Assembly: GCA_964474835.1 (NCBI GenBank)
Contig: CAYYUA010000004.1
Location: 33,848 to 97,847 of the forward strand
DNA length: 64,000 nt
From: an uncultured Sphingobacteriales bacterium
GTDB taxonomy: Bacteria; Bacteroidota; Bacteroidia; CAILMK01; CAYYUA01
Reading direction: 5' to 3'
In this document: positions 1 to 19,062 of the stretch, piece by piece
Numbering within the stretch: the first letter of the stretch is position 1
Layout of the letters: each line of letters starts with the position of its first letter
The notes under the pieces: model-generated
What the model was told of the DNA's origin: nothing
The model's input: the letters and a program-made list of their open reading frames with translations, nothing else
Database searches by the model: none
Program-made: the position numbers and the translations under genes

Positions 1-1043
1 AAGGATATAACTGCGGCTTTATCAGAAGACTGCCCAATAACCTGTAGTCCATCTACTGAGCGAAGGGCAGCCGTTGCGTATTCCAGTAGCTCCTTCTCGT
101 AGGACTGAATAGCCTCCCGGCCAATACCTTCAACATACTCAACAGCGCGGCCAAAGGCGATCGTATCGGCAATGTTCGGGGTTCCGGCCTCGAGCTTTAG
201 CGGAACTTCATTGTAGCTGGTCTTTTCGAAAGTCACCGTATCGATCATATCGCCTCCACCCTGGTAAGGTGGCATAGCGTCCAGCACATCGTACTTTCCG
301 TAAAGGATGCCGATCCCGGTTGGACCGAAGATCTTATGGGCGGACATAACATAGAAGTCACAGTCCAGATCCTGAACGTCAACCGGCATGTGCATGGGTG
401 CCTGAGCACCATCTATCAGGACAGCAGCTCCCTTGGCGTGCGCACGGTCAACCAAGTAGCGGGCCGGGTTTACCGTACCCAGTGTATTGGAAACGTGAAT
501 AAAAGCGACCATCTTGGTCCGGTCGCTAAGCTTAGCCTCAAAGTCATCGAGGTCGATGTCACCTTCATCGGTAACGTCAGCCACCTTCAGGGTTGCACCT
601 TGCTCTTCACAGAGCATCTGCCAGGGGACAATGTTGGAGTGATGCTCCATACCAGTGATGAGCACCTCATCACCTTCCTTTACATTCTGCTTACCGTGGG
701 TTTGGGCTACCAGGTTGATCCCTTCGGTAGTACCCCTTACAAACACCATTTCTTCCTTGTACTGAGCATTGAAGAAGTGCTGAAGCTTACCCCTTACCTG
801 CTCATAAGATTCACTGGCCTGTTGGCTCAGGCTGTGGATACCACGGTGTACATTACTGTTAACTTGGGTGTAGTACCAATTCAGGGTATCTATGACCTGT
901 TGCGGCTTCTGCGTTGTAGCTGCATTATCGAGGTAAGCAAGGGGCTTCCCATTCACTTCTTGGTCAAGGATGGGAAAGTCCTTTCGGTATTGCTCCACAT
1001 TCAGCTCTTTTGCCTGAGCTGATAACGTCTCTGCCTTACTCAT
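1..1043 (-). CDS. sufS: Cysteine desulfurase SufS (class V aminotransferase); the 3' end of the gene runs off the window edge
   Basis: The minus-strand frame starting at ATG 1043..1041 translates to MSKAETLSAQAKELNVEQYRKDFPILDQEVNGKPLAYLDNAATTQKP..., the canonical SufS N-terminus. It overlaps the sufD stop by 1 nt and is the last gene of sufBCDS. The + strand ORF 336..1022 is its antisense shadow. Confidence 0.85.
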   Translation of the reverse strand, partial: MSKAETLSAQAKELNVEQYRKDFPILDQEVNGKPLAYLDNAATTQKPQQVIDTLNWYYTQVNSNVHRGIHSLSQQASESYEQVRGKLQHFFNAQYKEEMVFVRGTTEGINLVAQTHGKQNVKEGDEVLITGMEHHSNIVPWQMLCEEQGATLKVADVTDEGDIDLDDFEAKLSDRTKMVAFIHVSNTLGTVNPARYLVDRAHAKGAAVLIDGAQAPMHMPVDVQDLDCDFYVMSAHKIFGPTGIGILYGKYDVLDAMPPYQGGGDMIDTVTFEKTSYNEVPLKLEAGTPNIADTIAFGRAVEYVEGIGREAIQSYEKELLEYATAALRSVDGLQVIGQSSDKAAVIS

Positions 1044-2380
1044 TAAAAGTCTATTTTCAGCTTGTTAGCAACTAAGTTGTTGAAATAATCCTTCACTTCT
1101 TCAATGTCCACATATGCGATCACCTCGGCAGCAAACGCATACACCAGCAGGGATTGAGCAGTTTCGTAATCAATGCCGCGTGCACGCATGTAGAAGAGCT
1201 GGTTCTCATCCAGCTGGCCGGAAGTAGCTCCGTGACTGCATTTAACATCATCCGCCCATATCTCCAGCTGTGGCTTAGCATTCACCGTAGCCTTATCGTC
1301 TAACAGGATGTTCCGGTTAGACTGATACGCATTGGTCTGCTGAGCGTGAGGGCGAACAAACACCTTACCATTGAAGACACTGACTGACCGGTCATCCACA
1401 ATGCCCTTGTAGAGCTCATTGCTTTCACAGCGCGGGACTTTGTGGTCAACAATGGTGTGATTATCGGCAAACTGTTTCCCATCAGTCAGATAGAGCCCGT
1501 AAAGGTTAGTTTCGCAATTCTCACCATTCACCCGGTAGTTGGTATTATTCCGGGTAAAGCCATTGCCGAGGGTAACCGTGTAATTGCTTATCGTACTATC
1601 CTGCTCCTGCGCCATCTCGATCTGTGATACCTGGTAAGCATTCAGTTGATCATTCTGAAGCTTGTAGTGCTTCAGGTGCGCATTAGGCGCTACATGGCCT
1701 TCGATGGTGTAATTCAGGAAGCTGTTGTTATCCCCTAAAGTATGGAAGTTCTCAATAACCTTTAGTTCAGCACTTTGCTCCAGGACCCAGAGGTTCCGGG
1801 GCTGAATGAACAGGTTCTGATCATTCACATCGTGGATGTGCAGAATCTGAACCGGGTATTCTGGTGCTTTATTTTTCGATACATGGATCACAACCCCATC
1901 ATCGATGAAAGCTGTGCTGAGTGCAGAAATGCCATCCTGCGTGTAATCGAGGTACTGCCCGATGTATTGTTGCACAAACTGCGGAGCCTCTACCTGAGCC
2001 TGACGAAGACTACGGATGTATACCTGGTCTTCTCCGTCAATAAGTTGCGAGTGCTCATCAGAATAGCGGCCGTTGATCAGCACTACCAAGTTGGTAGTGA
2101 TGTCTGAAACGCGGGCCTGATCGATTGTTTCCTGGGAAACATTGGGCTTGGCGACCTGATGGCCCAGGTAATAATCGGGCTTCAGAACGTTCTTGAGGCT
2201 TGTGTATTTCCAGTCTTCAATTTTAACGTGAGGAAACCCTAACTGCTCAAAGTATTGGATTGCGTCTTCCCGTACAGGTTTCAGGGTTTCGCGGGTCCCG
2301 TTCAGTTGCGTTTCAAAGTTGTTAAACTCGGAAACCCATTGCTCTTTAAGGTCCTCGCGAACGACAGGCTTTCTCTTCAT
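1043..2380 (-). CDS. sufD: Fe-S cluster assembly protein SufD
   Basis: A 445-aa ORF between sufC and sufS; the beta-helix SufB/SufD family C-terminus (…LFYMRARGIDYETAQSLLVYAFAAEV…) is recognisable. Confidence 0.8.
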   Translation of the reverse strand: MKRKPVVREDLKEQWVSEFNNFETQLNGTRETLKPVREDAIQYFEQLGFPHVKIEDWKYTSLKNVLKPDYYLGHQVAKPNVSQETIDQARVSDITTNLVVLINGRYSDEHSQLIDGEDQVYIRSLRQAQVEAPQFVQQYIGQYLDYTQDGISALSTAFIDDGVVIHVSKNKAPEYPVQILHIHDVNDQNLFIQPRNLWVLEQSAELKVIENFHTLGDNNSFLNYTIEGHVAPNAHLKHYKLQNDQLNAYQVSQIEMAQEQDSTISNYTVTLGNGFTRNNTNYRVNGENCETNLYGLYLTDGKQFADNHTIVDHKVPRCESNELYKGIVDDRSVSVFNGKVFVRPHAQQTNAYQSNRNILLDDKATVNAKPQLEIWADDVKCSHGATSGQLDENQLFYMRARGIDYETAQSLLVYAFAAEVIAYVDIEEVKDYFNNLVANKLKIDF

Positions 2381-2430
2381 AATTAACAGCGCATTTAAGT
2401 TAAGTGAAAATCCATCAGTTTAAAGACTTG

Positions 2431-3186
2431 TTAATCCTGATCGATCTCAGTCTTTAGCCAGTCGTAACCTTTTTCTTCGAGCTCATAGGCCAGATCCTTG
2501 TCGCCTGACTTCACAACCTGTCCATCGTAAAGGACGTGTACATAATCCGGTACAATATGGTTAAGGAGTCGCTGATAGTGCGTAATGATAACGAAAGCAT
2601 TGTCATTGGAGCTTAGCTGATTAACGCCATTGGCAACCGTCTTCAGCGCGTCAATATCCAGCCCGGAGTCTGTCTCATCCATGATGGAAAGCTTCGGCTC
2701 CATCAGGGCCATTTGCAGGATTTCGTTCCGCTTCTTTTCACCGCCGGAAAACCCTTCATTCACGGCCCGCTTCATCATCTGGTCATCGATACCGACCATC
2801 TTGGCCTTTTCCCGCATGAGCTTCAGGAAATCAGCGGATTTCATTTCTTCTTTGCCCTGAGCCTTACGGATCTCGTTTACTGACTGCTTCATGAAGTTGG
2901 TCATCGTCACGCCGGGGATTTCCACCGGGTACTGAAAGGCCAGGAAAAGGCCGGCCCGGGCCCGTTCTTCAGGCTCCATTTCCAGAAGCTGCTGGTTATC
3001 GAAAAGCACCTCTCCCTCTTCGATCTCGTAATCCTCACGACCCGTCAGGACCGATGCAAGCGTGCTTTTACCGGAACCGTTCGGCCCCATGATCGCGTGG
3101 ATCTCTCCGGGTTTGACTTCCATGTCAACGCCCTTTAGTATTTGATTGCCTTCAATAGAGGCCTTAAGGTTTTTTACGCTTAACAT
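2431..3186 (-). CDS. sufC: Fe-S cluster assembly ATPase SufC
   Basis: 251 aa with Walker A GPNGSGKST, the ABC signature, and the SufC-typical MLSVKNLKASIEGNQILKGV N-terminus. Confidence 0.9.
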   Translation of the reverse strand: MLSVKNLKASIEGNQILKGVDMEVKPGEIHAIMGPNGSGKSTLASVLTGREDYEIEEGEVLFDNQQLLEMEPEERARAGLFLAFQYPVEIPGVTMTNFMKQSVNEIRKAQGKEEMKSADFLKLMREKAKMVGIDDQMMKRAVNEGFSGGEKKRNEILQMALMEPKLSIMDETDSGLDIDALKTVANGVNQLSSNDNAFVIITHYQRLLNHIVPDYVHVLYDGQVVKSGDKDLAYELEEKGYDWLKTEIDQD

Positions 3187-3280
3187 AACTTAGTATAATT
3201 ATTTACTGCTTTCTACAAACAAGGATAGGACGCCATGGCTAACTCAATAGCCATGGCATCAGGTATGGGTAGTTTGGAAC

Positions 3281-4735
3281 TTAGCCTACGCTGCCTTCAA
3301 GGCTTACAGCCAGAAGGTTACGGGCTTCAACGGCAAACTCCATCGGGAGCTTGTCTAACACTTCTTTAGCATAGCCATTCACGATCATGGCTGTAGCGGT
3401 TTCTTCATCAATACCGCGTTGCTGGAAGTAGAACATCATGTCTTCCCCGATCTTGGAGGTTGTAGCCTCGTGCTCTACTGTTGAGGACTTGTTGTCAACT
3501 TCCAGATACGGAAAGGTATGGGCACCACAGTGGTCAGTCAGCAAGAGGGAATCACACTCTGAGAAATTCTTGCTGTTAGTGGCATTCTTACCAAACTTCA
3601 CCAGACCACGGTAGCTGTTCTGGCTGGATCCGGCTGAAATACCCTTGGAGATCACGCGGCTCTTCGTATTCTTACCAAAGTGCTGCATCTTGGTGCCAGT
3701 GTCGGCTTGTTGAGCACCTGCTGTGAGCGCTACGCTGTAGAATTCACCAGCAGAGTTATCGCCCTTCAATACACAGCTCGGGTACTTCCAGGTAACAGCT
3801 GAACCAGTTTCTACCTGTGTCCAGGAGATCTTGGAATTATCACCAGCTGCCAGGCCACGCTTGGTTACGAAGTTGTAAACGCCACCTTTACCGAAAGCAT
3901 CACCTGGGTACCAGTTCTGGATAGTGGAGTACTTGACCTCAGCGTTCTTGTGAGCATAAATCTCTACAACAGCTGCGTGAAGCTGATTTTCATCCCGCTG
4001 CGGTGCTGTACAACCTTCCAGGTAACTGACGTAACTGTCTTCATCAGCGATGATGAGGGTACGCTCAAACTGACCGGTTTCCTCAGCATTGATGCGGAAG
4101 TAGGTCGAAAGTTCCATCGGGCAGGTAACACCCTTCGGAACGTAAACGAAAGAGCCATCACTGAATACCGCTGAGTTAAGCGCAGCAAAGTAATTATCGG
4201 AGTGCGGAATTACACTGCCCAGGTACTGCTGTACAAGCTCGGGATAGTTTTGCACAGCCTCACTGATAGAGCAAAAGATGACGCCAGCTTCAGCAAGGGT
4301 TTCCTTGAAAGTGGTGTAAACCGACTCACTATCCATCACAGCATCTACTGCTACACCAGTGAGCGCCTTTTGCTCTTCAAGCGGAATTCCAAGCTTTTCG
4401 TAGGTCTTCAGAAGCTCCGGATCTACCTCATCAATGCTCTCAGGCTTCTTTTCATCGCTCTTACTAGGGGAGGCGTAGTAATAAATATCCTGAAAATCGA
4501 TGGGCGGGAACGCTACGTTCTGCCATTTAGGCATTTCGTCATTCAGCCAGTAGCGGAAAGCTTTCAAACGCTTTTCCAGCATCCATTCGGGCTCACCTTT
4601 CTTGTCCGAGATGAAGCGGATAATATCCTCGTTCAGCCCTTTGGGTGCAAATTCTTCCTCCACATTGGTTACCCAGCCGTGCTCGTACTCTCTCGAGGTA
4701 TACTTCTCTAGTAATTCGTTTTCAGATACTCCCAT
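3281..4735 (-). CDS. sufB: Fe-S cluster assembly scaffold SufB
   Basis: 484 aa with the canonical SufB C-terminal block (…[41 protein letters not shown]…). Confidence 0.9.
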
Positions 4736-7974: not shown

Positions 7975-8940
7975 TTACAACCGCTTAGCTGCAAAAAGGG
8001 GGTAGCCTTTTTGCCCATCGGCATTGTAAAAATCCCGGAACTGAAGCTTGTAATAAAAGCCCTTAGCATCCCTGACAATATAAACTTGCCCGGGATTTAT
8101 GGTGTAAGCACCGCTGCTAAAGTTGTAGGTCTTCCAATCAAAGCCGATCAGGTCCCGCCTGTTAGAAAGGGTTAGTTGCCGGGCATCAGACCGCTCAATG
8201 GCGGCAAATGCCCTGCTTGTATCCATGGCGGCCCTCGTTTCGTGCCGGTTAAGCAAAACCCCGGTTACGAGGTAAGGCCGGTAAGGATTGTAGAATATGT
8301 GGGTGTATTGGGTAAAAACCAAGTCATAGGCGTCTTTGGGAGGTTCAATCCGTTTCGTTTCATGGTCATCAAAGCTAAAGGCTACGGTGTTGTATTGCTG
8401 ATCCTTGGTAACCGTTCCCTCGTGAATGCGGCTCCTGTTCATGAAGCTATACTTAAAGCGAAAAGTTTGATCCTTAAGCGCTTTGAGCTGGAGTTTAACC
8501 ATTCCAAGGTCTTCACCACCCGGTCCGGTGCCGCGGTCGATCACATAGATATGACCCCCGGCCCATTGGGGATCAATGGCTAAGCTGTCAGCCCAACCAG
8601 CCGGATGATCAGGCCTGAAAGTATAGGCATCGGCATTGGCTACCGCATCCCAGTTTTTACGGCCGGTATAAGCAGCCTTCATGGCTGTGCTGGTATTCAG
8701 GAACACCTTCCGCGAACTATCCTCGCAATGAAAGGCCAGGTCCCAGTTCAATTTCGGGTTGGTACGCACTACCTCGTTATCGCTTAAGTCATACCAGATC
8801 TGTGTCCGGTATTCCGGCCCCATGGCCACTTGGCGGGTTTCTACTTCTCCGGTTTGGCGAGGTTCTACCGGCTTTTCTCCTTTTTGGCAAGCCCCTAATA
8901 GTGTACCCAGGCTAAGGGCTAAAGCTGTTATCCTCAGCAT
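7975..8940 (-). CDS. HmuY-like heme-binding lipoprotein
   Basis: Lipobox LLGAC; last gene of the heme locus, immediately downstream of the TonB-dependent receptor. It shares blocks with the second paralog at 15653..16972 (WYDL…W.LAF and IGFDWKTY…). Confidence 0.5.
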   Translation of the reverse strand: MLRITALALSLGTLLGACQKGEKPVEPRQTGEVETRQVAMGPEYRTQIWYDLSDNEVVRTNPKLNWDLAFHCEDSSRKVFLNTSTAMKAAYTGRKNWDAVANADAYTFRPDHPAGWADSLAIDPQWAGGHIYVIDRGTGPGGEDLGMVKLQLKALKDQTFRFKYSFMNRSRIHEGTVTKDQQYNTVAFSFDDHETKRIEPPKDAYDLVFTQYTHIFYNPYRPYLVTGVLLNRHETRAAMDTSRAFAAIERSDARQLTLSNRRDLIGFDWKTYNFSSGAYTINPGQVYIVRDAKGFYYKLQFRDFYNADGQKGYPLFAAKRL

Positions 8941-8944
8941 AGTG

Positions 8945-11257
8945 CTAAAATTTTGCAGTTAAACGCGTAAAAAGGGTGCGCCCCATGCCCACAGGCACCT
9001 GTCCGTTACCACCTGAATGGGCTCCTCCACCGCCCGCAGCGGCATTCACGTTGGTTACATCCAGTACATTCTTCATCCCTGCTGAAAGCTTGAGATGGTT
9101 ATCCCAGAGGGATTTGCTTAAAGTCAAATCCACGCGGTGGTAAGGTGCTATGAAATTTTCCCGGATATCGCCATCACTGTTTTGCCGCAAGCGCACTAAC
9201 CGCCCCTGGAATTTGTAAAAGCCGGCCATGGTAAGGTCCGGCTGTTGAAAGTTGTAGCGTAACCGGCCATTGGCTTGAGGGGTAAATTCATAAGCTTCCA
9301 GGCCTTCGGTTTGCCGGCCCAAATCATTGTAGCGGCCAGTATAAGCTGCGCCCATCGATAATTTCAGGCGCTGCCATACAGCCGAAAACTGCAGGTTAGC
9401 TCCGGTTGTCTGGTAATTCCCGATGTTCACGTAGTTAAACCTTGTGCCTTCTCCCTGTGCAAGCGCAATCCGGTTTCGAATGTCATTGAAAAAGGTGGAG
9501 ACTTCAGCTTTGATAAGGGTCTGATCAACCAATTGCTGGTAGTTAGCACTCAAGGCATAATTGTGGGCGTATTCGGCATCCAGGTTCGGATTCCCGTGAA
9601 TGTTGTGGTTGATATCCACGAACCGGAAGTAGAGTTCTTTCAGGCCCGGGGCCCGGAAACCCCGCGCATAAGAGCCCCGTAAGGTGAATTGTCCAAGCTT
9701 ATAACGGACATTCAGGGAAGGCGTTAAGGGAGGATCGTAATCCGTGTTCCAGGCTTTTCTAAGGCCTGGGCGTAGGGTTAAGCCTTCTGCAAGCCCCATC
9801 TCCGCGGTGGCAAACAGGGCGTAATTGTTCATGCCGCGGCTCCTGTTTTCGATGCGTTGCCCCTGCGCTTTTTCCCTCCGGATGTGGTAGCCGATCTCCC
9901 AGTTCAGGAAGCTGCTATCACTGGTGTGAGCCAGGCTGGCCCTGCTCATCCATAAATCAAATTGACTGGTGTCGTGGGCATTGTCATTGGCCCTTAGGGT
10001 CTTTTCCAATGTCGTCAGATCTTTGACATAGGTCTGTTTCCGGTGATCGTATTGGTTAAAGGCGGCCACCGCGTCCAGTTTCCAGTTATCCCCAATCGGT
10101 CCTTTGGCGTTTAGCGAATGGTTGATCCGCCGGGTGGTAAATTGGTCGTCAAAGGCTTTTTCATGGTACGGCGGGCGGGGATTGCCCCTGTTCCATACTT
10201 TCTCATCCATCAAAGATCCCTGATAACCAATGCGCCACTGATCCAGGTGGTATTGGTAATGCACCCGCCCGAAGTATTGCCGTTTCGGATTCCACTGGTC
10301 CGTTCGGTTGGTATCTGCGCGTGTTTTTTCAAATGGGGGCCAGAAATCATCACCGGGTTTCCAACCATCAAAGTAGTTGCGTCCGCCGGAAATACGGAAG
10401 TGGTGGTTCCCAAGCTGAAAGCCGGCATTGCCATTGGCGTTAAAAGTTCCGTTGTTCTCAAAGTAGGTGCCGGCTTCGGCATCAACCCCGGATTTTGCTG
10501 ATTTTTTGGTGATGATGTTGATGGTTCCGCCCAGGGCGTTGGTGCCATAGTTCACGCTTAGCGGGCCTTCAATTACCTCGATCCGCTTAACATCATTGAG
10601 GTTCAGCTGGCTCAGGTCAATGTTGCCATTCTGCCGGCCAATAACGGGAACCCCATCTACCATGATCTTGATGTTCTGCCCGGAAATGCCCTGAAGGCTC
10701 ATGCCGGCACCCAGGATGTTATCCTGCGAAACACGCACATTCAAGGTCTGGGTCATGACATCCCGCAAGTTAACGGCAGCCATTTGCTCTATTTCCGCCT
10801 CATCGATCACGCGGACCCGGTGAACCGCATCGCCTGCTTTTTGCCCTTGGTATTGCCCGGTTACCACCAAGGGATCCAGGGCATTTGGAACGGTTACCAA
10901 AGTCAAGCGATGGGGGGTCCCGGTTTGCAGGATTGTATCCAGGGCCTGCCGCCCCACATAGGTTATCCGGATGGAGAGGGAATCCCTTCCCTGGGTAAAA
11001 TCATCCGGAATGCGAACTTTTCCTTGCTTTCCGCTCACAAAATGCCGCACTTGCTGGGGAGCTTTGACTGCATGCACGTGGGCGTCAGGCAGCGGTTTAC
11101 CGGAAGCCGCATTGGTGATGGTCAGGGTGGTTTGCCCCATTCCCTGGCTTATCCATAAGCAGATAAAGCTGAGCAAAGCCGCCAAACCCTTCCAAAACGA
11201 TTGCCGGGATAGGGTTGACCTTAGGCCTTGATCAGCGATTAGGGAAACCGGCTTCAT
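8945..11257 (-). CDS. TonB-dependent outer-membrane receptor (heme/hemoprotein type)
   Basis: 770 aa with plug-domain motifs (IEVIEGPLSVNYGTNALGGTINIITKK) and a C-terminal aromatic residue (…TRLTAKF). It sits between HemS and HmuY-like genes. Confidence 0.85.
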   Translation of the reverse strand: MKPVSLIADQGLRSTLSRQSFWKGLAALLSFICLWISQGMGQTTLTITNAASGKPLPDAHVHAVKAPQQVRHFVSGKQGKVRIPDDFTQGRDSLSIRITYVGRQALDTILQTGTPHRLTLVTVPNALDPLVVTGQYQGQKAGDAVHRVRVIDEAEIEQMAAVNLRDVMTQTLNVRVSQDNILGAGMSLQGISGQNIKIMVDGVPVIGRQNGNIDLSQLNLNDVKRIEVIEGPLSVNYGTNALGGTINIITKKSAKSGVDAEAGTYFENNGTFNANGNAGFQLGNHHFRISGGRNYFDGWKPGDDFWPPFEKTRADTNRTDQWNPKRQYFGRVHYQYHLDQWRIGYQGSLMDEKVWNRGNPRPPYHEKAFDDQFTTRRINHSLNAKGPIGDNWKLDAVAAFNQYDHRKQTYVKDLTTLEKTLRANDNAHDTSQFDLWMSRASLAHTSDSSFLNWEIGYHIRREKAQGQRIENRSRGMNNYALFATAEMGLAEGLTLRPGLRKAWNTDYDPPLTPSLNVRYKLGQFTLRGSYARGFRAPGLKELYFRFVDINHNIHGNPNLDAEYAHNYALSANYQQLVDQTLIKAEVSTFFNDIRNRIALAQGEGTRFNYVNIGNYQTTGANLQFSAVWQRLKLSMGAAYTGRYNDLGRQTEGLEAYEFTPQANGRLRYNFQQPDLTMAGFYKFQGRLVRLRQNSDGDIRENFIAPYHRVDLTLSKSLWDNHLKLSAGMKNVLDVTNVNAAAGGGGAHSGGNGQVPVGMGRTLFTRLTAKF

Positions 11258-11290
11258 AGGGTAGACTTTTAAGCTTGTTGACCTTATTCA

Positions 11291-11611
11291 TCATTGATCA
11301 GTAAGCACGGCCCTGGCGGCCATCAGGCAGGCTGCCTGGTTCATAAGCTCACTCAGGGCGGCAAGCTCGTAGTAGTTGAGGGTTATCTTGACCTGATGGG
11401 AGCTGGTTTCGCACACAAAAATTTTCTCGTTAGGATTATCCGGGTTGGGTGTTTCGGCAAGTTGTTGATTAGCTCCTTTGAGCATGAATTCAAACTCCGC
11501 ATCCGACAGGGTTAGCCAGCAGGTGCCAAAACTGACATGCAAGGCCTGGCAATGCGGACATTGCGCTACATAGCCAAAATGAGAGGTGTGTAACACATCA
11601 CCATTACACAT
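11291..11611 (-). CDS. Small hypothetical Cys/His-rich protein
   Basis: A 106-aa ORF packed between hemS and the TonB receptor on the same strand, with 33- and 54-nt spacers. The N-terminus MCNGDVLHTSHFGYVAQCPHCQALH is Cys/His rich. No known family was recognised. Confidence 0.35.
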   Translation of the reverse strand: MCNGDVLHTSHFGYVAQCPHCQALHVSFGTCWLTLSDAEFEFMLKGANQQLAETPNPDNPNEKIFVCETSSHQVKITLNYYELAALSELMNQAACLMAARAVLTDQ

Positions 11612-11665
11612 AAATAGAAGAATTTTTGATTGGGTTTTGCCGGGTGCAGAACCTTAATGGTTGTT

Positions 11666-12763
11666 TTAGTAAGCGTGTTGTTCCTCCACGTTTCGCATTA
11701 GCTCCGTCCAGGCGGATAGCTCGGTCTCATTAGGTTTGCGCTCCCCAAAGAGGGTCAATACCAATTCCTGCTGGTGATTGAAGACCTCAAGGGAGGTGAT
11801 CAAACCATTAGCGGAGGGCTTACGAACAATCCAGGTCTGCTCAATGCCGGCCTCATTAAGATGCAAGTTGAAATTCGGGTCCATGACGTTGTACCATGGC
11901 CGGTATTCAACCAACTTCCTGACGGTTCCGGTATGGATCTGGATAAGCCCATCGTTGCCTACAAAGGCCATGATCGGCACCTTGGCTTCAGCGGCTTTTT
12001 CAAGTACGGTACGAATGGCGGCATGGGTAACGGGCACCGCATAATGGCCATCCGGTGCCAGCCGCAAGGCCTGGGTACGGGTTAGTTGGTAGCGCTTTAA
12101 CAACCCATGAAATTCATGGGTATGCTGCATGTTAAGCCAGCTTTCCCGGAAGCCTGCCTGATCAATGGCTTCATCCGGAAGCGCTTCAGGGGATTGGGAT
12201 TCGGTAGGGGTAACGGCTTCCCAAGGCGCTTGGTCTTCATGTTTAAATTCAGCAAAGATTGACTGAAAGCCCGCAATATCACTGTGAGGCGTCTGGTAAA
12301 TCTTTAGAATGGCGGTACCCCTTTGATCGAAAACTTGCAGGCTATGCCGCGGACTATTACCAGGATGATCAACCACCCCAAAGGCTTTGTCCCAATTCCA
12401 CATGAACAGCCGCTGGTCTATATCCTGGCTTACAAACATGCCCATCTTATAGTGGTCGTCAAATTCCGGCTGCGGAAATGTGCCAACCTTTTCATGGACC
12501 ACATCTTCATTGCGGATTATGGATTTAACCTCTGCCAGACGGGCCAAGCTTCTTAAAAGCGAAGGAAAGTCAGGGGTTAAACGGGTCACTTGGAGATCAC
12601 CGGTTTCCCCACAGTACGCTGCTATGAGCTCAGCTTCCGATACACCCAGTTCATGGGCTGCGTCACGGGTGCGCATTTTTGGCCGGGCCTTTTTCAGGTC
12701 CGCCCATTGTTCCTTTAGGTCTGGTTTTGTCTGTTCCATTGCTTTACGTTTTAGGTGATTCAA
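11666..12763 (-). CDS. hemS: Hemin transport/degradation protein HemS/ChuS/HmuS family
   Basis: 365 aa in two homologous halves. Conserved blocks align with Yersinia HemS: LAEVKSIIRNEDVVHEKVG, IMAFVGNDGLIQIHTGTVRKL, and NLHLNEAGIEQTWIVRKPSANGLITSLEVF. Confidence 0.85.
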   Translation of the reverse strand: MNHLKRKAMEQTKPDLKEQWADLKKARPKMRTRDAAHELGVSEAELIAAYCGETGDLQVTRLTPDFPSLLRSLARLAEVKSIIRNEDVVHEKVGTFPQPEFDDHYKMGMFVSQDIDQRLFMWNWDKAFGVVDHPGNSPRHSLQVFDQRGTAILKIYQTPHSDIAGFQSIFAEFKHEDQAPWEAVTPTESQSPEALPDEAIDQAGFRESWLNMQHTHEFHGLLKRYQLTRTQALRLAPDGHYAVPVTHAAIRTVLEKAAEAKVPIMAFVGNDGLIQIHTGTVRKLVEYRPWYNVMDPNFNLHLNEAGIEQTWIVRKPSANGLITSLEVFNHQQELVLTLFGERKPNETELSAWTELMRNVEEQHAY

Positions 12764-12855
12764 TTGGGAATGATGGATAGATTGCGAAGGGTCTAAAACC
12801 CTTCGCTAGAGATAGTTTCAAATCACTCAGCGCTTTTTATCCATAGCCCAGGGTT

Positions 12856-13719
12856 TTATATAAATCTGTCATTGGTAGTGTTAGGCGTTAGGGTTTCGTA
12901 ATTCGCAGAAACCGGAGTATGGCGAAAGGACGAGCGCCCGAAGAAAACCTGCGGGCAAGCTTTGAAGGGATGGGACTGGACCATCACTGGAAACTGGTAG
13001 CATTCAGCCAATAAAGCTTCCTGCAAAACCTCGTCAGGCTTGCCGATGGCCATTTTTTGCCCCTCATTGAGCAAAAGTAGGCGATCGGCATACATAGCCG
13101 CCAGGTTCAGGTCATGCAAAACGGCTATGGCCACGTGGCCCTGACCTGTAAAGGTCCTTACCACTTCCATGATTTCATGCTGATGCCGTACATCAAGGTT
13201 GTTCAACGGTTCATCCAGCAAAAGCAATTTAGGCTGAGCCGCATACTGCCCCGTCCAAACCTGCGCCAGGACCCGGGCCATCTGAACACGCTGTTGCTCA
13301 CCGCCGGATAGGGTTAAGTAATACCGCTTAGCCAAATGCGTAACGCCCGTTTGCTGCATGGCCTCCCGGATAGCCGACCAGTCCGCTTCTCCCGGTTGGT
13401 ATTGAAAGTGCGGATAACGCCCCATCTTCACCACCTCTTCTACCGGGAAATCATAGCTCATCGCAGTATGCTGTGTAAGAACCGCTCGCTCTTTTGCTAA
13501 CTCCGGGCCTTTGAAGGCATTCAGCGGATACTTACCCCACCAAACGCGCCCTCCGGAAAGGCGGCTTTCCCCGCTTAGCAACTGAAGTAGCGTTGATTTT
13601 CCAGCGCCATTCGGGCCCAGGACGCCCAGCAATTCACCAGCTTCAGCGGTGAGATTCAGAGGCTCCAGAATGGGTTTTTGACGGACCCGGTACGTTATGT
13701 TCTCTGCTTGCAAAATCAT
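12856..13719 (-). CDS. hmuV: Hemin ABC transporter ATP-binding protein (FecE/HmuV type)
   Basis: Walker A GPNGAGKST, signature LSGGEQQRV, and Walker B LLLLDEP. It overlaps the permease gene by 4 nt. Confidence 0.85.
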   Translation of the reverse strand: MILQAENITYRVRQKPILEPLNLTAEAGELLGVLGPNGAGKSTLLQLLSGESRLSGGRVWWGKYPLNAFKGPELAKERAVLTQHTAMSYDFPVEEVVKMGRYPHFQYQPGEADWSAIREAMQQTGVTHLAKRYYLTLSGGEQQRVQMARVLAQVWTGQYAAQPKLLLLDEPLNNLDVRHQHEIMEVVRTFTGQGHVAIAVLHDLNLAAMYADRLLLLNEGQKMAIGKPDEVLQEALLAECYQFPVMVQSHPFKACPQVFFGRSSFRHTPVSANYETLTPNTTNDRFI

Positions 13720-14756
13720 ACAACCCCACTTCTGTATTTAACCAGTAAAAACAGGAAAAAAGGGGCTCCGGCTAAGGAGGTGATAATCCCGATCGGGATC
13801 TCAGCGGGGGCCACTACGGTACGGGAAAGGGTATCCGCCCAGCAAAGCAATACGGCTCCACCAAGGGCCGAGGCGGGCAACAAAAAGCGATGATCAGCAC
13901 TGCCCCATAGCCGCAGCATATGGGGCACTACGAGCCCTATGAAACTGATCATCCCACAAAAAGCAACCGTTGCGCCTACGCCAAGGGCTGTCAGCACGAT
14001 CACCCGGCGTTTAACGACCTCGGTCGGTATGCCAATGTGGATGGCTTCCTTCTCTCCTAAAGCCAGGGCATTGAAAGGTTTGTACAAGGGCAGGATGAAG
14101 CCGGTGGCCAACACAGTAGTCAGCGCTACTATTGCTGTATTTTTCCAATTAGCCCCGCCCAGGCTGCCAAGGGTCCAGAAGGTGAGGCTGCGCAACTCTT
14201 CGTTGTCGGCCAGGTAGGTCATCAAACCTGTAAAAGCCCCTGCTAAGGCATTGATGGCAACCCCTGCCAGCAGCATGGTAGCCACGCTGGTCTGCCCGCC
14301 TTTTCGGGCAATGCGGAAAATCAAAAAGGTGGCGGCCGCAGCTCCGGCAAACGTGGCTATTGAAAGCAAAGAAAGCGTGCCAATGGTATAGGCGGTTCCC
14401 AAAAAGCTACCGGCCAAAACGATGACCAGCGATGCAGCCAATGCCCCACCAGCCGAAATGCCAATAATAGAGGGATCAGCCAGGGGGTTCCGGAACAAGC
14501 CCTGCATCGCAGCCCCACAAATCGCCAGGGAGCTTCCCACAAAACAACTCATGAGCACCCTTGGCAAACGGATAGCCCAGAATACAGCCGCTTCCTGCGA
14601 ACTATGGGCTCCCGGCAAACTGATACCGACTTTGCCGGCAACCATGGAAGCGATGGCTTCCAGGTCAATGGCCATGGCACCAATACTGGCTGAGGCCACC
14701 AGGGAAACCGGGACCAATACAGCTAATAAAAGCAGTATGGCCTTGAGCTTATTCAT
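13716..14756 (-). CDS. hmuU: FecCD-family ABC permease (HmuU type)
   Basis: 346 aa, highly hydrophobic, with the FecCD-type conserved Gly-rich C-terminal region. Confidence 0.85.
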   Translation of the reverse strand: MNKLKAILLLLAVLVPVSLVASASIGAMAIDLEAIASMVAGKVGISLPGAHSSQEAAVFWAIRLPRVLMSCFVGSSLAICGAAMQGLFRNPLADPSIIGISAGGALAASLVIVLAGSFLGTAYTIGTLSLLSIATFAGAAAATFLIFRIARKGGQTSVATMLLAGVAINALAGAFTGLMTYLADNEELRSLTFWTLGSLGGANWKNTAIVALTTVLATGFILPLYKPFNALALGEKEAIHIGIPTEVVKRRVIVLTALGVGATVAFCGMISFIGLVVPHMLRLWGSADHRFLLPASALGGAVLLCWADTLSRTVVAPAEIPIGIITSLAGAPFFLFLLVKYRSGVV

Positions 14757-15651
14757 CGGCTACCACCTTCTTCAGCTTTTGGTTCAATTCGAGGACGGCT
14801 TTGCCCAACCGCGGACTGAAACCGGATAAGAGCTGGCCGTCCATGGCGATAAAAGCTTTGTTTTTACCGGCTTTGGTCTGCTCGATGCCTTTGACATTCA
14901 TCAATCCCTTGGTGCCCTGGAGGCTCTTCAACCCACTTTCAAAAAGCAGGATGGCATCGGGGTCGGCCTTGATGAGGGCCTCCGCGTTCAATGGCTTAAA
15001 ATCGCTAAAGCCGGTAATGGCATTCTTACCGCCTGCCAGCGCTATCATGGTCTGCATGGGGGTGCCTTCTCCTGCTACCATCATGTTGCCTCGCCCCCTG
15101 GCATAAATGAACAGAACACTGGGCTCAGGATTGAGGTCTTTCACTTTGTTAAGCTTGCGATCAATGGCCTTTACCATTTTTTGACCAGCGGAGGGCTTCT
15201 TCAGGGTGTCGGTCACCCTTTGGATGAGTTGTTTGGTTCCTTTCACTGTATGGGAATGGTCGAGAAGTAAGAGTCTTACACCTGCTGTTTTTAACTGAGC
15301 GCGAAGCTCAGGCTTCAGGGCTCCTTTCAATGCCCACACCCAATCAGGGTTCTGAGCAAGGATGCCTTCCGCTTGCATATTACGCGTATGGCCCAAATGG
15401 GGCAGATCCTGGACAGCGGGCGGGTAGGTGCTGGTAACATCAACGCCTACCAATTGATCCGTGTAGCCGGCCACAGCAATGATCTCGGTTAAACTCCCGT
15501 CAAGGGATACCATGCGTGTGCTGTCCGTTAAAACGGCCCCGGCCGCCTGATCCTCCTCTTGAGCATCCTGGCAGGCCGGGACCATGAAGCAACAAACAGC
15601 AAAAAACAGAAGCATTTTAAGGGAACGATATCCGCTGAACATATTAACCAT
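14749..15651 (-). CDS. hmuT: Periplasmic hemin/siderophore-binding protein of the ABC system (HmuT type)
   Basis: 300 aa with a signal peptide; cluster-8 substrate-binding-protein architecture; directly upstream of the permease gene. Confidence 0.75.
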   Translation of the reverse strand: MVNMFSGYRSLKMLLFFAVCCFMVPACQDAQEEDQAAGAVLTDSTRMVSLDGSLTEIIAVAGYTDQLVGVDVTSTYPPAVQDLPHLGHTRNMQAEGILAQNPDWVWALKGALKPELRAQLKTAGVRLLLLDHSHTVKGTKQLIQRVTDTLKKPSAGQKMVKAIDRKLNKVKDLNPEPSVLFIYARGRGNMMVAGEGTPMQTMIALAGGKNAITGFSDFKPLNAEALIKADPDAILLFESGLKSLQGTKGLMNVKGIEQTKAGKNKAFIAMDGQLLSGFSPRLGKAVLELNQKLKKVVADE

Positions 15652-15652
15652 T

Positions 15653-16972
15653 TTACCGGATCATTACCTTTTGGGTTTCTATATGATTAGGGCCTTGAAG
15701 CTGCAAAAAGTACATCCCGGGTTCCAGCTTCCCGGTTTTCACTTTTTGCTGGGCTAATTGCCCCGCTGGTAAATTCCGCTGACGGACAATGCGCCCGTTC
15801 ACATCCCTTAAGAGAAGGGTTGATGGGCCTTTGTCTTGTGGGGTATTGTAAGTTACTGTTAAGCGTGAACCTTGTACCGGGTTAGGGAAAACTTTGAGTA
15901 GTGACCCGCGAGCCGAGGTTTTGGCTATCCCGGTTTGCTGCGTGTTCATCGGTTCCTTGAAAAAGTTGAAGTTGCCACTGGCGTTACCGCCAAAACCGGT
16001 AAACACTACCCGCCAGATGTCCTCCGATTGTGTTTTGACAAAATAGACGGTACTATCGGCAATCCGGAATTGGCGTTCCTGCCTGTCAAAGGTTTTCCAA
16101 TCAAACCCGATGGTGTTGATGGCATCTTTGAAAGTATGGCGGCTGTACTTGTCATAAGCTTTGGGATCAGCTACAGGATTTACCTTGACAGCCTGCGCGG
16201 AACCGTTCAACAAAACCCCGGTGACGGGATAGGGCCGGGGTAAAAAAGTGGTGTATTGCGTAAACAGCAATTGCCATTCTGGCTTTTTGGGTGCCGGATC
16301 AAGGGGTTGGTTGTTTTTTAAAGAGTAGTAAGCGAAGGCTTTGTCGGAATAGTCATTCTTGTTGATGGTAGCGGTTTGGGCATTTTGCCCATTAAGGTCA
16401 GCATAATGGAACGTGTAAGTGCGGGAAGCCAGGCGTTCGATCCATACCTGCTTAAAGGTTTTATTACCTAATTGCATGACATAAATACTATCGCCTACCA
16501 CATGATGGGTTGTGGGATTGTAAACGCCCCATCCGAGGTCTACCTGTTTTTCAGGGTTGGCGTTTGCGTTGAAAGCGCCCTGGCTCCATGAGGTATCAGC
16601 ATTGTAAAGTTGGCGAAAGCTTTGTAAGCCGGAAGTGTCCAGCGAAGTCCCAAAGCTGGCACTATCGCCTTTGGGGTACAGCCAGAGTTTGGTCCCGGTA
16701 GCAGGATTAATCCTTATGCCTGATCCTCTTCCTGATACGGAAAAGGCCAGTTCCCATTGGTCTTGGGCCACACGGGCTTGCTCACCTTCTGCCAGGTCAT
16801 ACCATACGCGATCGGCATAGCCTTGCTTTAAGGAAAGGGTATCGCTAATGCCGGTCTGTTGGCCGATTGTAAAAAAGGAGATTCCACAAAGTAGTGTCGT
16901 TAAAAAAGTAATCGTACGTATCATTTTTTTATTATTTTTATTTAGACAAATTCTAAATAATTGGCGATTCAA
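15653..16972 (-). CDS. HmuY-like protein with a C-terminal T9SS type-A sorting domain (Por_Secre_tail)
   Basis: A paralog of 7975..8940 with shared motifs. The C-terminal ~80 aa (LLKVFPNPVQGSRLTVTYN…LLLRDVNGRIVRQ…LEPGMYFLQLQGPNHIETQKVMIR) is a typical T9SS CTD. The real start is probably the internal MIRTITFLTTLL at about 16924. Confidence 0.6.
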   Translation of the reverse strand: MNRQLFRICLNKNNKKMIRTITFLTTLLCGISFFTIGQQTGISDTLSLKQGYADRVWYDLAEGEQARVAQDQWELAFSVSGRGSGIRINPATGTKLWLYPKGDSASFGTSLDTSGLQSFRQLYNADTSWSQGAFNANANPEKQVDLGWGVYNPTTHHVVGDSIYVMQLGNKTFKQVWIERLASRTYTFHYADLNGQNAQTATINKNDYSDKAFAYYSLKNNQPLDPAPKKPEWQLLFTQYTTFLPRPYPVTGVLLNGSAQAVKVNPVADPKAYDKYSRHTFKDAINTIGFDWKTFDRQERQFRIADSTVYFVKTQSEDIWRVVFTGFGGNASGNFNFFKEPMNTQQTGIAKTSARGSLLKVFPNPVQGSRLTVTYNTPQDKGPSTLLLRDVNGRIVRQRNLPAGQLAQQKVKTGKLEPGMYFLQLQGPNHIETQKVMIR

Positions 16973-17187
16973 ACGTACTTTCTACTTGCTCAACTGTCAA
17001 TACCGCAAATGAGGTATTTTTCGAAACCAAGCTAAATAGCTTGGGTAAATCACATTTAAGCGAGCTTTATAAATCAGTCATCCTTTTGCTACCACAGAAA
17101 TTTTCAAGTATTAAAAAAGCTTTCACATCTAAGAATACGGCTCGCGTATTGCTTCTAGTTATTGCTTCAAAATCTATATTGTTAATG

Positions 17188-19062
17188 CTTGATAAGCTTT
17201 TCAAAACCAATCTGAATTTGCCTGGGGTAGGCAAAACAACCCTTGTCACCTGCGCAGCCATTCTTTTTTTGTTAAATGGAGCAATAGCACAACGCAGTGA
17301 TGCATCCCAGAAGGAGAAGTTGGCTGTACAGTATTACCAGAATGAGAAGTTTGAAAAGGCCTTACCCCTGTTCGAAGAGCTTTTTAACGCCAATCCGGGA
17401 TCAGACTACCTGTACGAATATTACCTGAATACCATGCTGAAGACGGAGGCTTATGAGCAGGCCACCACAATGCTGGAAACCCAGACTGACCGCTATCCGC
17501 GGAAGCTTACCTACCGTATTGCCCTGGGCTATGTTCAGGAGCAGCAGGGAAACCCAGAAAAGGCCAAAAGCACCTACGAAAGTGTGCTGGATAACCTGGC
17601 CCCGAGGCGGAATAAGCTTAAGACAGTGGCGAATACTTTCCGGAATCGTGGGAAGCTCAACTATGCCATTAAGACCTACGAGAAAGGGAAGGAGCTGATC
17701 AATGAAGAACAGGCATTCAGCCTGCAGCTGGCCCGCCTGTACCGGGAATCGGGTGACCAGCAGGATGCCATGTTTCAGGCTTACCTTGATGCTTTTCAAC
17801 TGGATGCGCAGTCCGGGGACCTCATCAAGAACGAACTGCAAGAGCTGGTGATGAATGATGCTCCGTTCCGGAATTTCAAAGGCATCCTGCTAAAACGGAT
17901 CAGGAATAACCCCGGAAAGCGCAGGCTGGTCGATCTTTTATCATGGCTGTTTATTCAGAATGAAGCGTTTGACCAGGCATTTGTTCAGCTGCGGGCCCTT
18001 CAGAAGCGGCTGGAAACCAATGGCCGGCGCTTAGTAGAGCTGGCTTCTGTGGCAAGAAAGAACCAAGCCCTCAGCACAGCCGAGCAGGTGTACCGCTACC
18101 TGATCGACCTTGGTCCTGACAATCCCTACTACTTCAGAGCTCGTCAGGGTGTGCTGGAGGTTCAGTATGACCGGATCACCAAGCTAAAGGAGTATGAACA
18201 AGCCGATTTGGTCAAGCTTGAGAAGGGCTATCGGGAGTTCATGAACGATGAGCGCTTTAGCTATGCCAGCAATGGAAAAGTTACATTGCGCCTGGCTAAG
18301 CTTAAGGCGATTTACCTGGACGAAATCGATAAGGCCATCGGCCTTCTGCAAACGCTGATCAATAAGCAAGCAGGCGGCAACAGGACACTGAAAGCCAAAG
18401 CGCGCCTGGCCCTGGCCGATTACTATTTGTTAAAGGGGCAGCATGCAAAGGCACAGCTAACCTACGCCAAGGTTGAGAACATGTTCGAAGGGCATCCTTT
18501 AGGCAACAAGGCTACATACCGGAAAGCCAAGCTTTCCTTCTACAAAGGCAATTTTGACTGGGCCGGCTCCCAGCTCAAGATCCTGAAAGGAGCTACCTCC
18601 AAGATGATTGCCAACAATGCCCTGGAGCTGGATATGCTGATCAAGGACAACCGCGGCCTGGATACCACTGAAGTCCCCTTACAGATCTATGCCCGGGCTG
18701 ATATGTACCTCTTCAAGAATCAGTATGAGGAAGCCCAGCTCCGGCTCGATTCGATCCTTACGCAGTTCCCGGAACACAACCTGACTGACGAAGTGTATTT
18801 TGCCAAAGCCCGGATTGCTAAAGAGAATCGTAACTACGACTCGGCCGTCAGCCTGCTAAAAAAGATCTACAGCAATTACGGGAACGATATTCTGGCTGAT
18901 AATGCCTTGTATAAGGCTGCTCGCATTTACCAGCGTCAGCTTGATGATCAGCAAAAGGCTAAAAAGCTCTATGAAGAGATTGTTACGGAGTACGGCGGCA
19001 GCATCTATCAACTAAAAGCACGGAAAGCTTATCGCAAGCTCAGGGGTGATCGTATCAATTGA
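17188..19062 (+). CDS. Tetratricopeptide-repeat protein with a signal peptide
   Basis: Repeated TPR-like A/Y/L patterns throughout. The ORF opens at 17041, but the likely start is MLDKLF… at 17188, which precedes a hydrophobic signal segment. Confidence 0.65.
   Translation, partial: LDKLFKTNLNLPGVGKTTLVTCAAILFLLNGAIAQRSDASQKEKLAVQYYQNEKFEKALPLFEELFNANPGSDYLYEYYLNTMLKTEAYEQATTMLETQTDRYPRKLTYRIALGYVQEQQGNPEKAKSTYESVLDNLAPRRNKLKTVANTFRNRGKLNYAIKTYEKGKELINEEQAFSLQLARLYRESGDQQDAMFQAYLDAFQLDAQSGDLIKNELQELVMNDAPFRNFKGILLKRIRNNPGKRRLVDLLSWLFIQNEAFDQAFVQLRALQKRLETNGRRLVELASVARKNQALSTAEQVYRYLIDLGPDNPYYFRARQGVLEVQYDRITKLKEYEQADLVKLEKGYREFMNDERFSYASNGKVTLRLAKLKAIYLDEIDKAIGLLQTLINKQAGGNRTLKAKARLALADYYLLKGQHAKAQLTYAKVENMFEGHPLGNKATYRKAKLSFYKGNFDWAGSQLKILKGATSKMIANNALELDMLIKDNRGLDTTEVPLQIYARADMYLFKNQYEEAQLRLDSILTQFPEHNLTDEVYFAKARIAKENRNYDSAVSLLKKIYSNYGNDILADNALYKAARIYQRQLDDQQKAKKLYEEIVTEYGGSIYQLKARKAYRKLRGDRIN

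Follow-up and report, generated by a model that had tools for sequence, protein, structure and literature searches.

We analysed a 64,000-nt stretch of the genome of an uncultured Sphingobacteriales bacterium (contig CAYYUA010000004.1 of assembly GCA_964474835.1), referred to below as the window, which carries on its minus strand eight genes that probably form an iron-regulated heme-acquisition operon. Two of the products are paralogous HmuY-like proteins that accompany a single TonB-dependent receptor, one of them bearing the C-terminal domain (CTD) of type IX secretion system (T9SS) cargo and the other being a lipoprotein. From the first gene to the last, the locus holds the CTD-bearing paralog, denoted YCTD (15653..16924, 423 aa); HmuT (14749..15651), the predicted lipoprotein-type periplasmic heme-binding protein serving an ATP-binding cassette (ABC) importer, with lipobox VPAC; HmuU (13716..14756), a FecCD-type permease (FecCD, 288 bits); HmuV (12856..13719), a heme ABC transporter ATPase assigned by the NCBIfam equivalog NF010068; a cytoplasmic protein of the HemS/PhuS/ChuS type (11666..12739, 357 aa), heme-binding or heme-degrading by homology; a 106-aa DUF6686 protein (11291..11611; PF20391, 29.6 bits); the TonB-dependent outer-membrane receptor (8945..11257, 770 aa), consisting of an N-terminal CarboxypepD_reg-like domain, a plug and a barrel; and the HmuY-like lipoprotein, denoted YLipo (7975..8940, 321 aa), with Cys18 in the lipobox LLGAC. 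Genes hmuT and hmuU overlap by 8 nt (14749-14756), hmuU and hmuV by 4 nt (13716-13719), and YLipo starts 4 nt past the end of the receptor gene. This order, the domains and the ABC overlaps of 4-8 nt had been described in a first-pass annotation of the sequence, with which the list of open reading frames (ORFs) and our domain scans agree. The 106-aa protein, present as described there but left as an unknown, is now placed in DUF6686.

Two of the ORFs as first listed, 15653-16972 for the first gene and 11666-12763 for hemS, have different starts here. The identity of the first gene stood, but its start is the ATG at 16924 (423 aa) and not the TTG at 16972 (439-aa ORF), because a 98%-identical database protein (P0001) is 423 aa long and because an A-rich leader and an operator-like palindrome fill the supposed 5' extension. 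The start of hemS is most likely the ATG at 12739, judged by its 98% relative on contig L082. The locus had also been regarded as almost certainly one operon. The gene overlaps speak for this, but a 116-nt gap separates hmuV from hemS and holds a hairpin on the minus strand (12784..12806, GCGAAGGGT-TTTAG-ACCCTTCGC; 9-bp stem without a T-run behind it, read from the sequence), and transcription of all eight genes on a single transcript is therefore only likely. The hairpin may act in RNA processing or RNA stability, or it may terminate transcription in part. A scan for sigma-70 promoters and intrinsic terminators, which is ill-suited to Bacteroidota promoters, gave results at background level.

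In the Pfam scan YLipo scored 76.1 bits against the HmuY family (PF14064, cut-off 27), and YCTD scored 27.6 bits, which is marginal. Owing to the internal duplication described below, the match of YCTD stretches over 282 residues for 147 profile positions. Aligned with each other over 311 columns, the two proteins share 25% identity (E 8e-19), and the profiles of their families align with an hhalign probability of 100% (E 2.5e-50). By these comparisons the two are true paralogs, as the first-pass annotation had claimed, and come from sister families. Structure prediction against the HmuY fold had been proposed there as a check. The confident AlphaFold2 models calculated from the family alignments had a predicted local distance difference test (pLDDT) value of 91.7 for YCTD, with a disordered linker at residues 330-338 followed by a separate C-terminal beta-sandwich at 342-422, and of 93.8 for YLipo, with a predicted template modelling score of 0.86. 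Both paralogs have the all-beta fold of the HmuY family (structures 3H8T, 6EU8, 6R2H and 8B6A). A phmmer search of the PDB sequences with the YCTD sequence alone gave no match.

The single-domain HmuY structures align with just 130-155 of the ~300 residues of each paralog. In profile searches, the N-terminal HmuY motif of BfrB falls on residues 7-112 of YLipo and the C-terminal motif on 284-319, while in YCTD the N-terminal motif falls on residues 181-223 and the C-terminal one on 139-170. When the N-half was compared with the C-half by hhalign, the probability was 79% in YCTD and 91% in YLipo, at E values of about 1e-6 to 1e-7, and the strand pattern recurs between the two halves in each paralog. 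Based on the placement of the motifs, the half-against-half comparison and the repeated strand patterns, each of these ~300-residue proteins very probably has an internal duplication of the HmuY module, the duplicated region of YCTD comprising residues ~25-328 (window 15941-16852). YLipo had been seen as a classical lipoprotein partner of the receptor; a lipoprotein directly after the receptor gene is what we find, but a duplicated module of ~300 residues is not the classical form. Five relatives of 700-990 aa (P0242, P0245, P0246, P0361 and P0335) have more than one copy of the double-HmuY region, four of them showing two matched stretches, and thus larger multi-module forms of the secreted protein exist.

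The N-terminus of YCTD (MIRTITFLTTLLCGISFFTIGQQ) is hydrophobic and was read directly, rather than by a predictor, as a Sec signal peptide (residues 1-~22); the signal peptides of its family terminate in ...AQ, and YCTD is not a lipoprotein. Its tail, a T9SS type-A CTD (residues 342-423, window 15656-15901), scored 40 bits against PF18962 Por_Secre_tail (cut-off 27) and 38.5 bits against TIGR04183 (cut-off 23), at residues 361-439 in the numbering of the 439-aa ORF, and the modelled tail has the Ig-like beta-sandwich fold of CTDs. The Por_Secre_tail previously assigned to this paralog is thereby confirmed. No other CTD protein was seen in the 64 kb of the window. In the YLipo family, the lipobox Cys is followed by x-K-E-E-[LI]-P, of which the window copy, CQKGEKPV, is a degenerate version. 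We take the C-x-K-E-E at these N-termini to be the signal for surface export of Bacteroidota lipoproteins, reportedly K-(D/E)2 (Lauber et al. 2016). From these signals YCTD is predicted to be exported through the T9SS and YLipo to be flipped to the cell surface.

As to whether YCTD would be released after removal of its CTD or kept at the surface, the sequence does not discriminate between the two fates. The type-A CTD by itself leaves release or anchoring unsaid, and many type-A CTD cargo proteins of Flavobacteriia are found in soluble form. In a variant of the same pathway, YCTD would remain covalently attached to the surface after CTD cleavage, where it would either dock hemoproteins as a receptor or store heme for supply to YLipo and the TonB-dependent receptor. 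Such a role would resemble Porphyromonas gingivalis, where T9SS cargo is anchored to anionic lipopolysaccharide (PMC12094164) and the heme-binding protein HBP35 is brought to the surface by the T9SS (PMC10202324). The HmuY of Flavobacterium columnare is, on the other hand, described as secreted or extracellular (PMC9618737), and we regard the anchored variant as rather unlikely, if by no means negligible.

The axial heme ligands known from characterised HmuY proteins (His134/His166 in P. gingivalis; Met/Met in Tfo, PinO and Bvu) are not conserved in the two paralogs. Of these, His166 is the sole position that could be aligned, and it corresponds to Phe274 of YLipo; no alignment was obtained at His134 or at the Met/Met positions. 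The alignment of the YLipo family contains no invariant His or Met: 64% of members have His214 and 66% have Met87, while Tyr212, Tyr223 and Tyr305 are near-invariant. In YCTD, Tyr135 and His140 are invariant in 54/54 homologs, which are 33-57% identical to the window protein. Both are located on a hairpin of the N-half, W132-G-x-Y-N-x-x-T-H, which corresponds to the His166-bearing hairpin of HmuY with the ligand positions shifted, and the equivalent hairpin is deleted in YLipo. With regard to what the first-pass annotation had named as grounds for refutation, the HmuY fold was found, but the known heme-coordinating residues are not conserved, and YCTD has Tyr135/His140 in their place as candidate ligands only. 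The divergence of ligands is no argument against heme binding, because HfpY of Flavobacterium psychrophilum binds heme 1:1 at less than 26% identity to known HmuY proteins (PMC9331221), and binding of heme by both YCTD and YLipo is what we infer.

The remaining proteins of the locus also bear on whether the substrate is heme. HmuV scored 312 bits against NF010068, over its cut-off of 261 bits. HmuT matches Peripla_BP_2 (90 bits) and reaches no NCBIfam equivalog cut-off; its nearest PDB relatives are RhuT (5gj3, E 2.3e-48), BhuT, Yersinia pestis HmuT (1.6e-37), ShuT, PhuT and HutB (to 1e-27), whereas BtuF, at E 1e-7, is weaker than the heme-specific proteins by ~30-40 orders of magnitude. HemS is a two-domain protein in Pfam (HemS 216 bits, ChuX_HutX 165 bits) and aligns end to end with PhuS (4imh, E 2.6e-80), ChuS and HemS (down to 8e-55), its THEFH motif aligning with THHFH of PhuS. 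HmuT, HmuV and HemS are thus closest to proteobacterial heme proteins (RhuT/BhuT/HmuT, NF010068 and PhuS, respectively), which agrees with the proteobacterial HemS/HmuTUV logic suggested for the locus at the outset.

The receptor is a less clear case. Its top-scoring NCBIfam model is TIGR01785 (TonB-hemin), yet at 119.5 bits it is below the cut-off of 316.85, and it is similar to solved receptors at the plug level only. It contains the His-bearing box GFRAPGLKELYFRFVDINHNIHGNPNL (GFRAP-x19-NPNL), which is conserved, with one invariant His, in 66/66 receptors of the related loci. As boxes of the FRAP/NPNL type also occur in non-heme receptors such as BtuB, this box is no more than suggestive of heme. 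Where present, the DUF6686 gene always immediately precedes that of the receptor; among the 65 related loci that keep the core described below it occurs in 16, in three types of gene cassette. Its conserved Cys2 (Met-Cys start) and motif G-[YF]-[VI]-x-x-C-x-x-C were derived from 19 aligned sequences, the window and truncated loci included; there is no evident signal peptide. No relative of DUF6686 was found in the PDB, and a word-based search gave three close homologs only.

A ligand other than iron-heme for the two HmuY-like proteins and the receptor, such as a different metalloporphyrin, protoporphyrin IX, a product of chlorophyll breakdown or a corrinoid, would be compatible with the receptor score below the heme-subfamily cut-off, with the lack of conservation at the single alignable known ligand position, and with the class II chelatase-type lipoprotein (CbiX) that most related loci hold between YCTD and the receptor. 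Some HmuY homologs and HusA in fact bind protoporphyrin IX or non-iron porphyrins (PMC12094164). The heme equivalog of HmuV, the distance of HmuT from BtuF, and the heme-specific relatives of HmuT and HemS all point the other way. A cobalamin riboswitch was considered, since it would have redirected the interpretation, but the Rfam scan found neither this nor any other riboswitch or RNA family. The operator described next also fits iron acquisition, and a non-heme ligand appears improbable.

Upstream of YCTD lies the palindrome TTTAGAATTTGTCTAAA (16941..16957, no strand assigned), a candidate operator of the Fur-family type that ends 17 nt and starts 33 nt upstream of the ATG at 16924 and is present as a single copy in the window. 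The family consensus TTTAGAATnATTCTAAA is an 8-1-8 palindrome. Allowing at most one arm mismatch, we found 78 matches in 1.46 Mb of related loci, 50 of which fall within 300 nt upstream of a YCTD gene, in 43/83 sequences (~37-fold enrichment); some loci have two copies ~70 nt apart. Another 11 matches are upstream of a LuxR/GerE response-regulator gene located just before YCTD, and this regulator gene stands directly ahead of YCTD in at least 12 loci. Additional copies stand ahead of a different response-regulator gene, of a gene for an AraC regulator and of a receptor gene. The palindrome in its exact form was also met in unrelated metagenome contigs, directly upstream of three FUR-family genes, dps, ahpC and katG (two). 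It is also found there before rubrerythrin and four rubrerythrin-VIT1 genes, before sufS (two), sufB, sufE and hemA (three), and before TonB receptors, three GerE response regulators and a DoxX gene. Ten of these downstream products were confirmed by Pfam and the rest were read from the sequence.

The 7-1-7 core of the palindrome, TTAGAATnATTCTAA, differs from the PerR box of Bacillus subtilis (TTATAATnATTATAA) at one position per half-site and from the Fur box (TGATAATnATTATCA) at two. The 7-1-7 concept and the likeness of Fur and PerR boxes have been described (PMC3293774). Because the palindrome recurs before fur-family, iron and peroxide-stress genes, we predict that it is a Fur-family operator at which Fur or a PerR-type metalloregulator would repress the operon, and this fits the measured iron repression of hfpRY (PMC9331221). 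We also considered the palindrome as a binding site of the adjacent LuxR/GerE regulator. This was rejected as the principal explanation, since the palindrome precedes AraC and receptor genes, occurs in loci that have no such regulator, and stands before the iron and peroxide-stress genes of unrelated contigs. No fur gene is present in the 64-kb window. The SufB/SufD-type genes at 1043-4735 lie 3 kb from the operon and, in contrast to sufS and sufB in some metagenome contigs, lack a copy of the palindrome in the window even when up to three mismatches are allowed.

The upstream border of the locus differs from that on the 98%-identical metagenome contig L082. There, a LuxR/GerE response-regulator gene (620-1261) with its own palindrome lies between a TPR gene and YCTD. 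In the window an unrelated 304-bp segment (17017-17320) replaces 1129 bp of that contig (270-1398), the TPR gene has a different 5' end, and no homolog of the LuxR/GerE regulator was found in the 64 kb. A perfect inverted repeat (CCAAGCTA-TT-TAGCTTGG, 17027-17044) lies within the window-specific segment and is absent from L082. The wider surroundings are ordinary chromosome (sufBD, aldehyde dehydrogenase, DUF4837, a TPR protein, PSP1, holB, menD and menF), and the composition profile, with GC of 0.515-0.527 in the locus against 0.46-0.52 alongside, has no island signature.

Proteins of this kind are widespread. A word-indexed search gave 258 clusters at 90% identity of ~415-aa proteins that combine HmuY and CTD, and an exhaustive phmmer search with the HmuY part gave 1646 representatives at 50% identity, of which 650 had E<=1e-30. 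The majority have lengths of 400-425 aa, and a few of 700-990 aa have two copies. A scan of species genomes with a 12-sequence alignment placed relatives in 238 GTDB species genomes, mainly of Flavobacteriales (Crocinitomicaceae, Salibacteraceae, Vicingaceae, Fluviicola and Owenweeksia) and Chitinophagales, with cultured carriers that include Salibacter halophilus and Nemorincola caseinilytica. The layout of the window operon is also present in cultured Salibacter halophilus KCTC 52047 (L022), and Nemorincola caseinilytica has the CbiX type of locus described below (L049).

We surveyed 81 loci by tblastn with the window proteins, and the flanks of 71 were long enough for these to be informative. 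YCTD has, within 9 kb and in the same orientation, the same type of receptor and YLipo in 65 of the 71 (92%); the other six have YCTD without a receptor nearby. The genes in the middle, assigned from Pfam on representative loci, vary. The commonest cassette, in 30 loci, consists of a CbiX lipoprotein and PepSY_TM_like_2 with or without DUF6686, one of the 30 also having DUF6607. It is followed by DUF6607 with or without DoxX and DUF6686 (14 loci), nothing at all (10), the HmuTUV and HemS genes of the window with or without DUF6686 (7), CbiX with an FMN_bind/Fer4_5 protein (3), and DUF6686 only (1). One further locus of the window type was seen on a 4-Mb metagenome contig (L203). Since the 65 loci keep YCTD, the receptor and YLipo while the middle cassettes vary, the conserved unit is this outer-membrane trio. 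The mix of Porphyromonas and proteobacterial logic proposed in the first-pass annotation does apply to the window, but as a minority type (7/65) among several back ends. The replacement cassettes (for example L049 11321-12863, L044 11252-12621 and L001 11277-13565) may be routes that take iron from heme outside the cytoplasm.

YCTD might also be a T9SS cargo protein whose HmuY-like beta-sandwich has nothing to do with heme, serving for instance in adhesion or glycan binding, and which is only co-regulated or co-located with the uptake genes. The marginal Pfam score, the six loci where YCTD has no receptor nearby, and the F. columnare mutant, which has no phenotype (PMC9618737), could all be read in this manner. 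We nevertheless consider it very improbable, as co-orientation with the receptor and YLipo is kept in 92% of the informative loci over at least four cassette types, YCTD carries the operator of the whole operon, and its family is the sister of the receptor-linked lipoprotein family. Moreover, on a Candidatus Kapaibacterium contig (L204, 7715-10005) the CTD-bearing protein adjoins an HmuY-like lipoprotein even with no TonB receptor within 9 kb. Upstream on that contig is a DtxR-type iron repressor with a FeoA domain.

Taken as a heme-acquisition operon, the locus would work as follows. In low iron, a Fur-family repressor would leave the palindrome at 16941-16957 and the operon would be transcribed. 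YCTD would pass through the inner membrane via Sec and then through the outer one via the T9SS, lose its CTD, and be released or tethered at the surface, where its duplicated HmuY-like body would capture heme, possibly via the invariant Tyr135/His140 hairpin. Heme would then pass to the surface-exposed YLipo and its TonB-dependent receptor and so into the periplasm, where the lipoprotein HmuT would hand it to the HmuUV ABC importer, and cytoplasmic HemS/PhuS would take it for storage, trafficking or degradation. Several results weigh against this pathway. YCTD only just exceeds the HmuY cut-off, the receptor is well below that of its heme model and the boxes flanking its invariant His are shared with non-heme receptors. 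YLipo has Phe274 at the His166 position, and neither His nor Met is invariant in its family. The gap with the hairpin before hemS could split the genes into two transcripts. Genes for the T9SS, TonB/ExbBD and Fur are absent from the 64-kb window, and deletion of hmuY in F. columnare had no effect on growth or virulence (PMC9618737). Considering both sides, we still regard an iron-regulated heme-acquisition operon that works along these lines as the probable explanation of the locus.

Compared to known systems, the locus combines familiar parts in a different way. P. gingivalis HmuY (3H8T; hmuYRSTUV) is a single ~190-residue domain with His134/His166 as ligands, whereas the modules here are duplicated, of ~300 residues, and do not conserve His166; unlike in the HmuY-HmuR pair, the receptor gene precedes the lipoprotein gene here and a second paralog is predicted to be exported by the T9SS. 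HmuSTUV of P. gingivalis consists of a CobN-like protein and unrelated membrane proteins and not of an ABC importer with HemS (PMC12094164). The CbiK-like lipoprotein IhtB of the same species, proposed to remove iron from heme as a reverse ferrochelatase (PMC12094164), is similar to the CbiX lipoprotein, which takes the place of HmuTUV/HemS in the majority of related loci and is absent from this window; by analogy, the CbiX of the commonest cassette would point to a metalloporphyrin substrate. HBP35 is heme-binding T9SS cargo as well (PMC10202324), with a thioredoxin-type fold unlike that of YCTD. T9SS-sorting-domain genes near hmu loci of Porphyromonas species appear in a figure legend (PMC12106395).

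Among Flavobacteriia, receptor/HmuY-like pairs are known in F. psychrophilum and Tenacibaculum maritimum (PMC9331221, PMC5561996). The F. psychrophilum operon HfpR-(DoxX)-HfpY has a receptor followed by an HmuY-like protein, is iron-repressed, and its HfpY binds heme (PMC9331221). By description, it shares the order of receptor and HmuY-like protein with our locus, and DoxX with the DUF6607-type relatives; a T9SS paralog, an ABC importer and HemS, as found here, are undescribed for it. F. columnare C6N29_01035 contains HmuY_like (pfam14064) and Por_Secre_tail (TIGR04183) and the T9SS is stated to secrete it (PMC9618737, with reference to Thunes et al. 2022). It has the architecture of YCTD, likened by description and not by sequence, with linked receptor, lipoprotein and ABC genes undescribed there. 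Given this protein and the same layout in Salibacter halophilus, the idea of a T9SS-delivered hemophore is less new than the first-pass annotation implied. In the literature searched, we found no description of the conserved trio in which a receptor goes with a secreted and a lipoprotein paralog, nor of the duplicated HmuY architecture, the interchangeable back ends or the operator.

The proteobacterial HemR-HemSTUV and PhuR-PhuSTUV systems share the logic of receptor, binding protein, FecCD permease, ATPase and HemS/PhuS; the Hem/Hmu/Shu/Chu/Phu systems have neither HmuY-type accessories nor T9SS cargo, and the lipoprotein form of the binding protein and the CarboxypepD_reg-like domain of the receptor are peculiar to our locus in this comparison. 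HasA systems, secreted by the type I route, are alike in outline, with a secreted scavenger that serves a dedicated TonB receptor under Fur. Fold and secretion are unrelated, and our locus adds a lipoprotein paralog at the receptor. The candidate His and Tyr of YCTD recall His32 and Tyr75 of HasA.

A broader reading would see the trio as a double-HmuY relay, from secreted scavenger to lipoprotein to TonB receptor, which forms, in environmental Bacteroidota, an old and portable front end under a Fur-family operator on at least four unrelated back ends: HmuTUV with HemS for cytoplasmic import, CbiX with PepSY_TM, CbiX with an FMN/Fe-S membrane protein, and DUF6607 with DoxX, the last three extracting iron outside the cytoplasm, and with heme bound through His140/Tyr135 in a manner unlike characterised HmuY. 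This reading is tentative, and in its full extent we think it has the odds against it.

The locus is a genuine and well-formed member of an under-studied variant of Bacteroidota heme uptake, made of ordinary parts in a moderately interesting organisation. What is understood of heme uptake in this phylum comes almost entirely from anaerobes of the mouth and gut and from two fish pathogens, and the family described here, with its secreted and lipid-anchored HmuY-like pair around one receptor, is uncharacterised and large (at least 650 clusters at 50% identity, 238 GTDB species). The palindrome can be used as a predictor of the Fur-family regulon in poorly studied lineages, and the cultured carriers Salibacter halophilus and Nemorincola caseinilytica make these readings testable. 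If the relay is real, a T9SS-dependent hemophore route would join those by type I secretion (HasA) and by lipoprotein (HmuY), some of the T9SS cargo found in environmental Bacteroidota would be explained, and the alternative cassettes would provide a comparative handle on how aerobic Bacteroidota free iron from heme.

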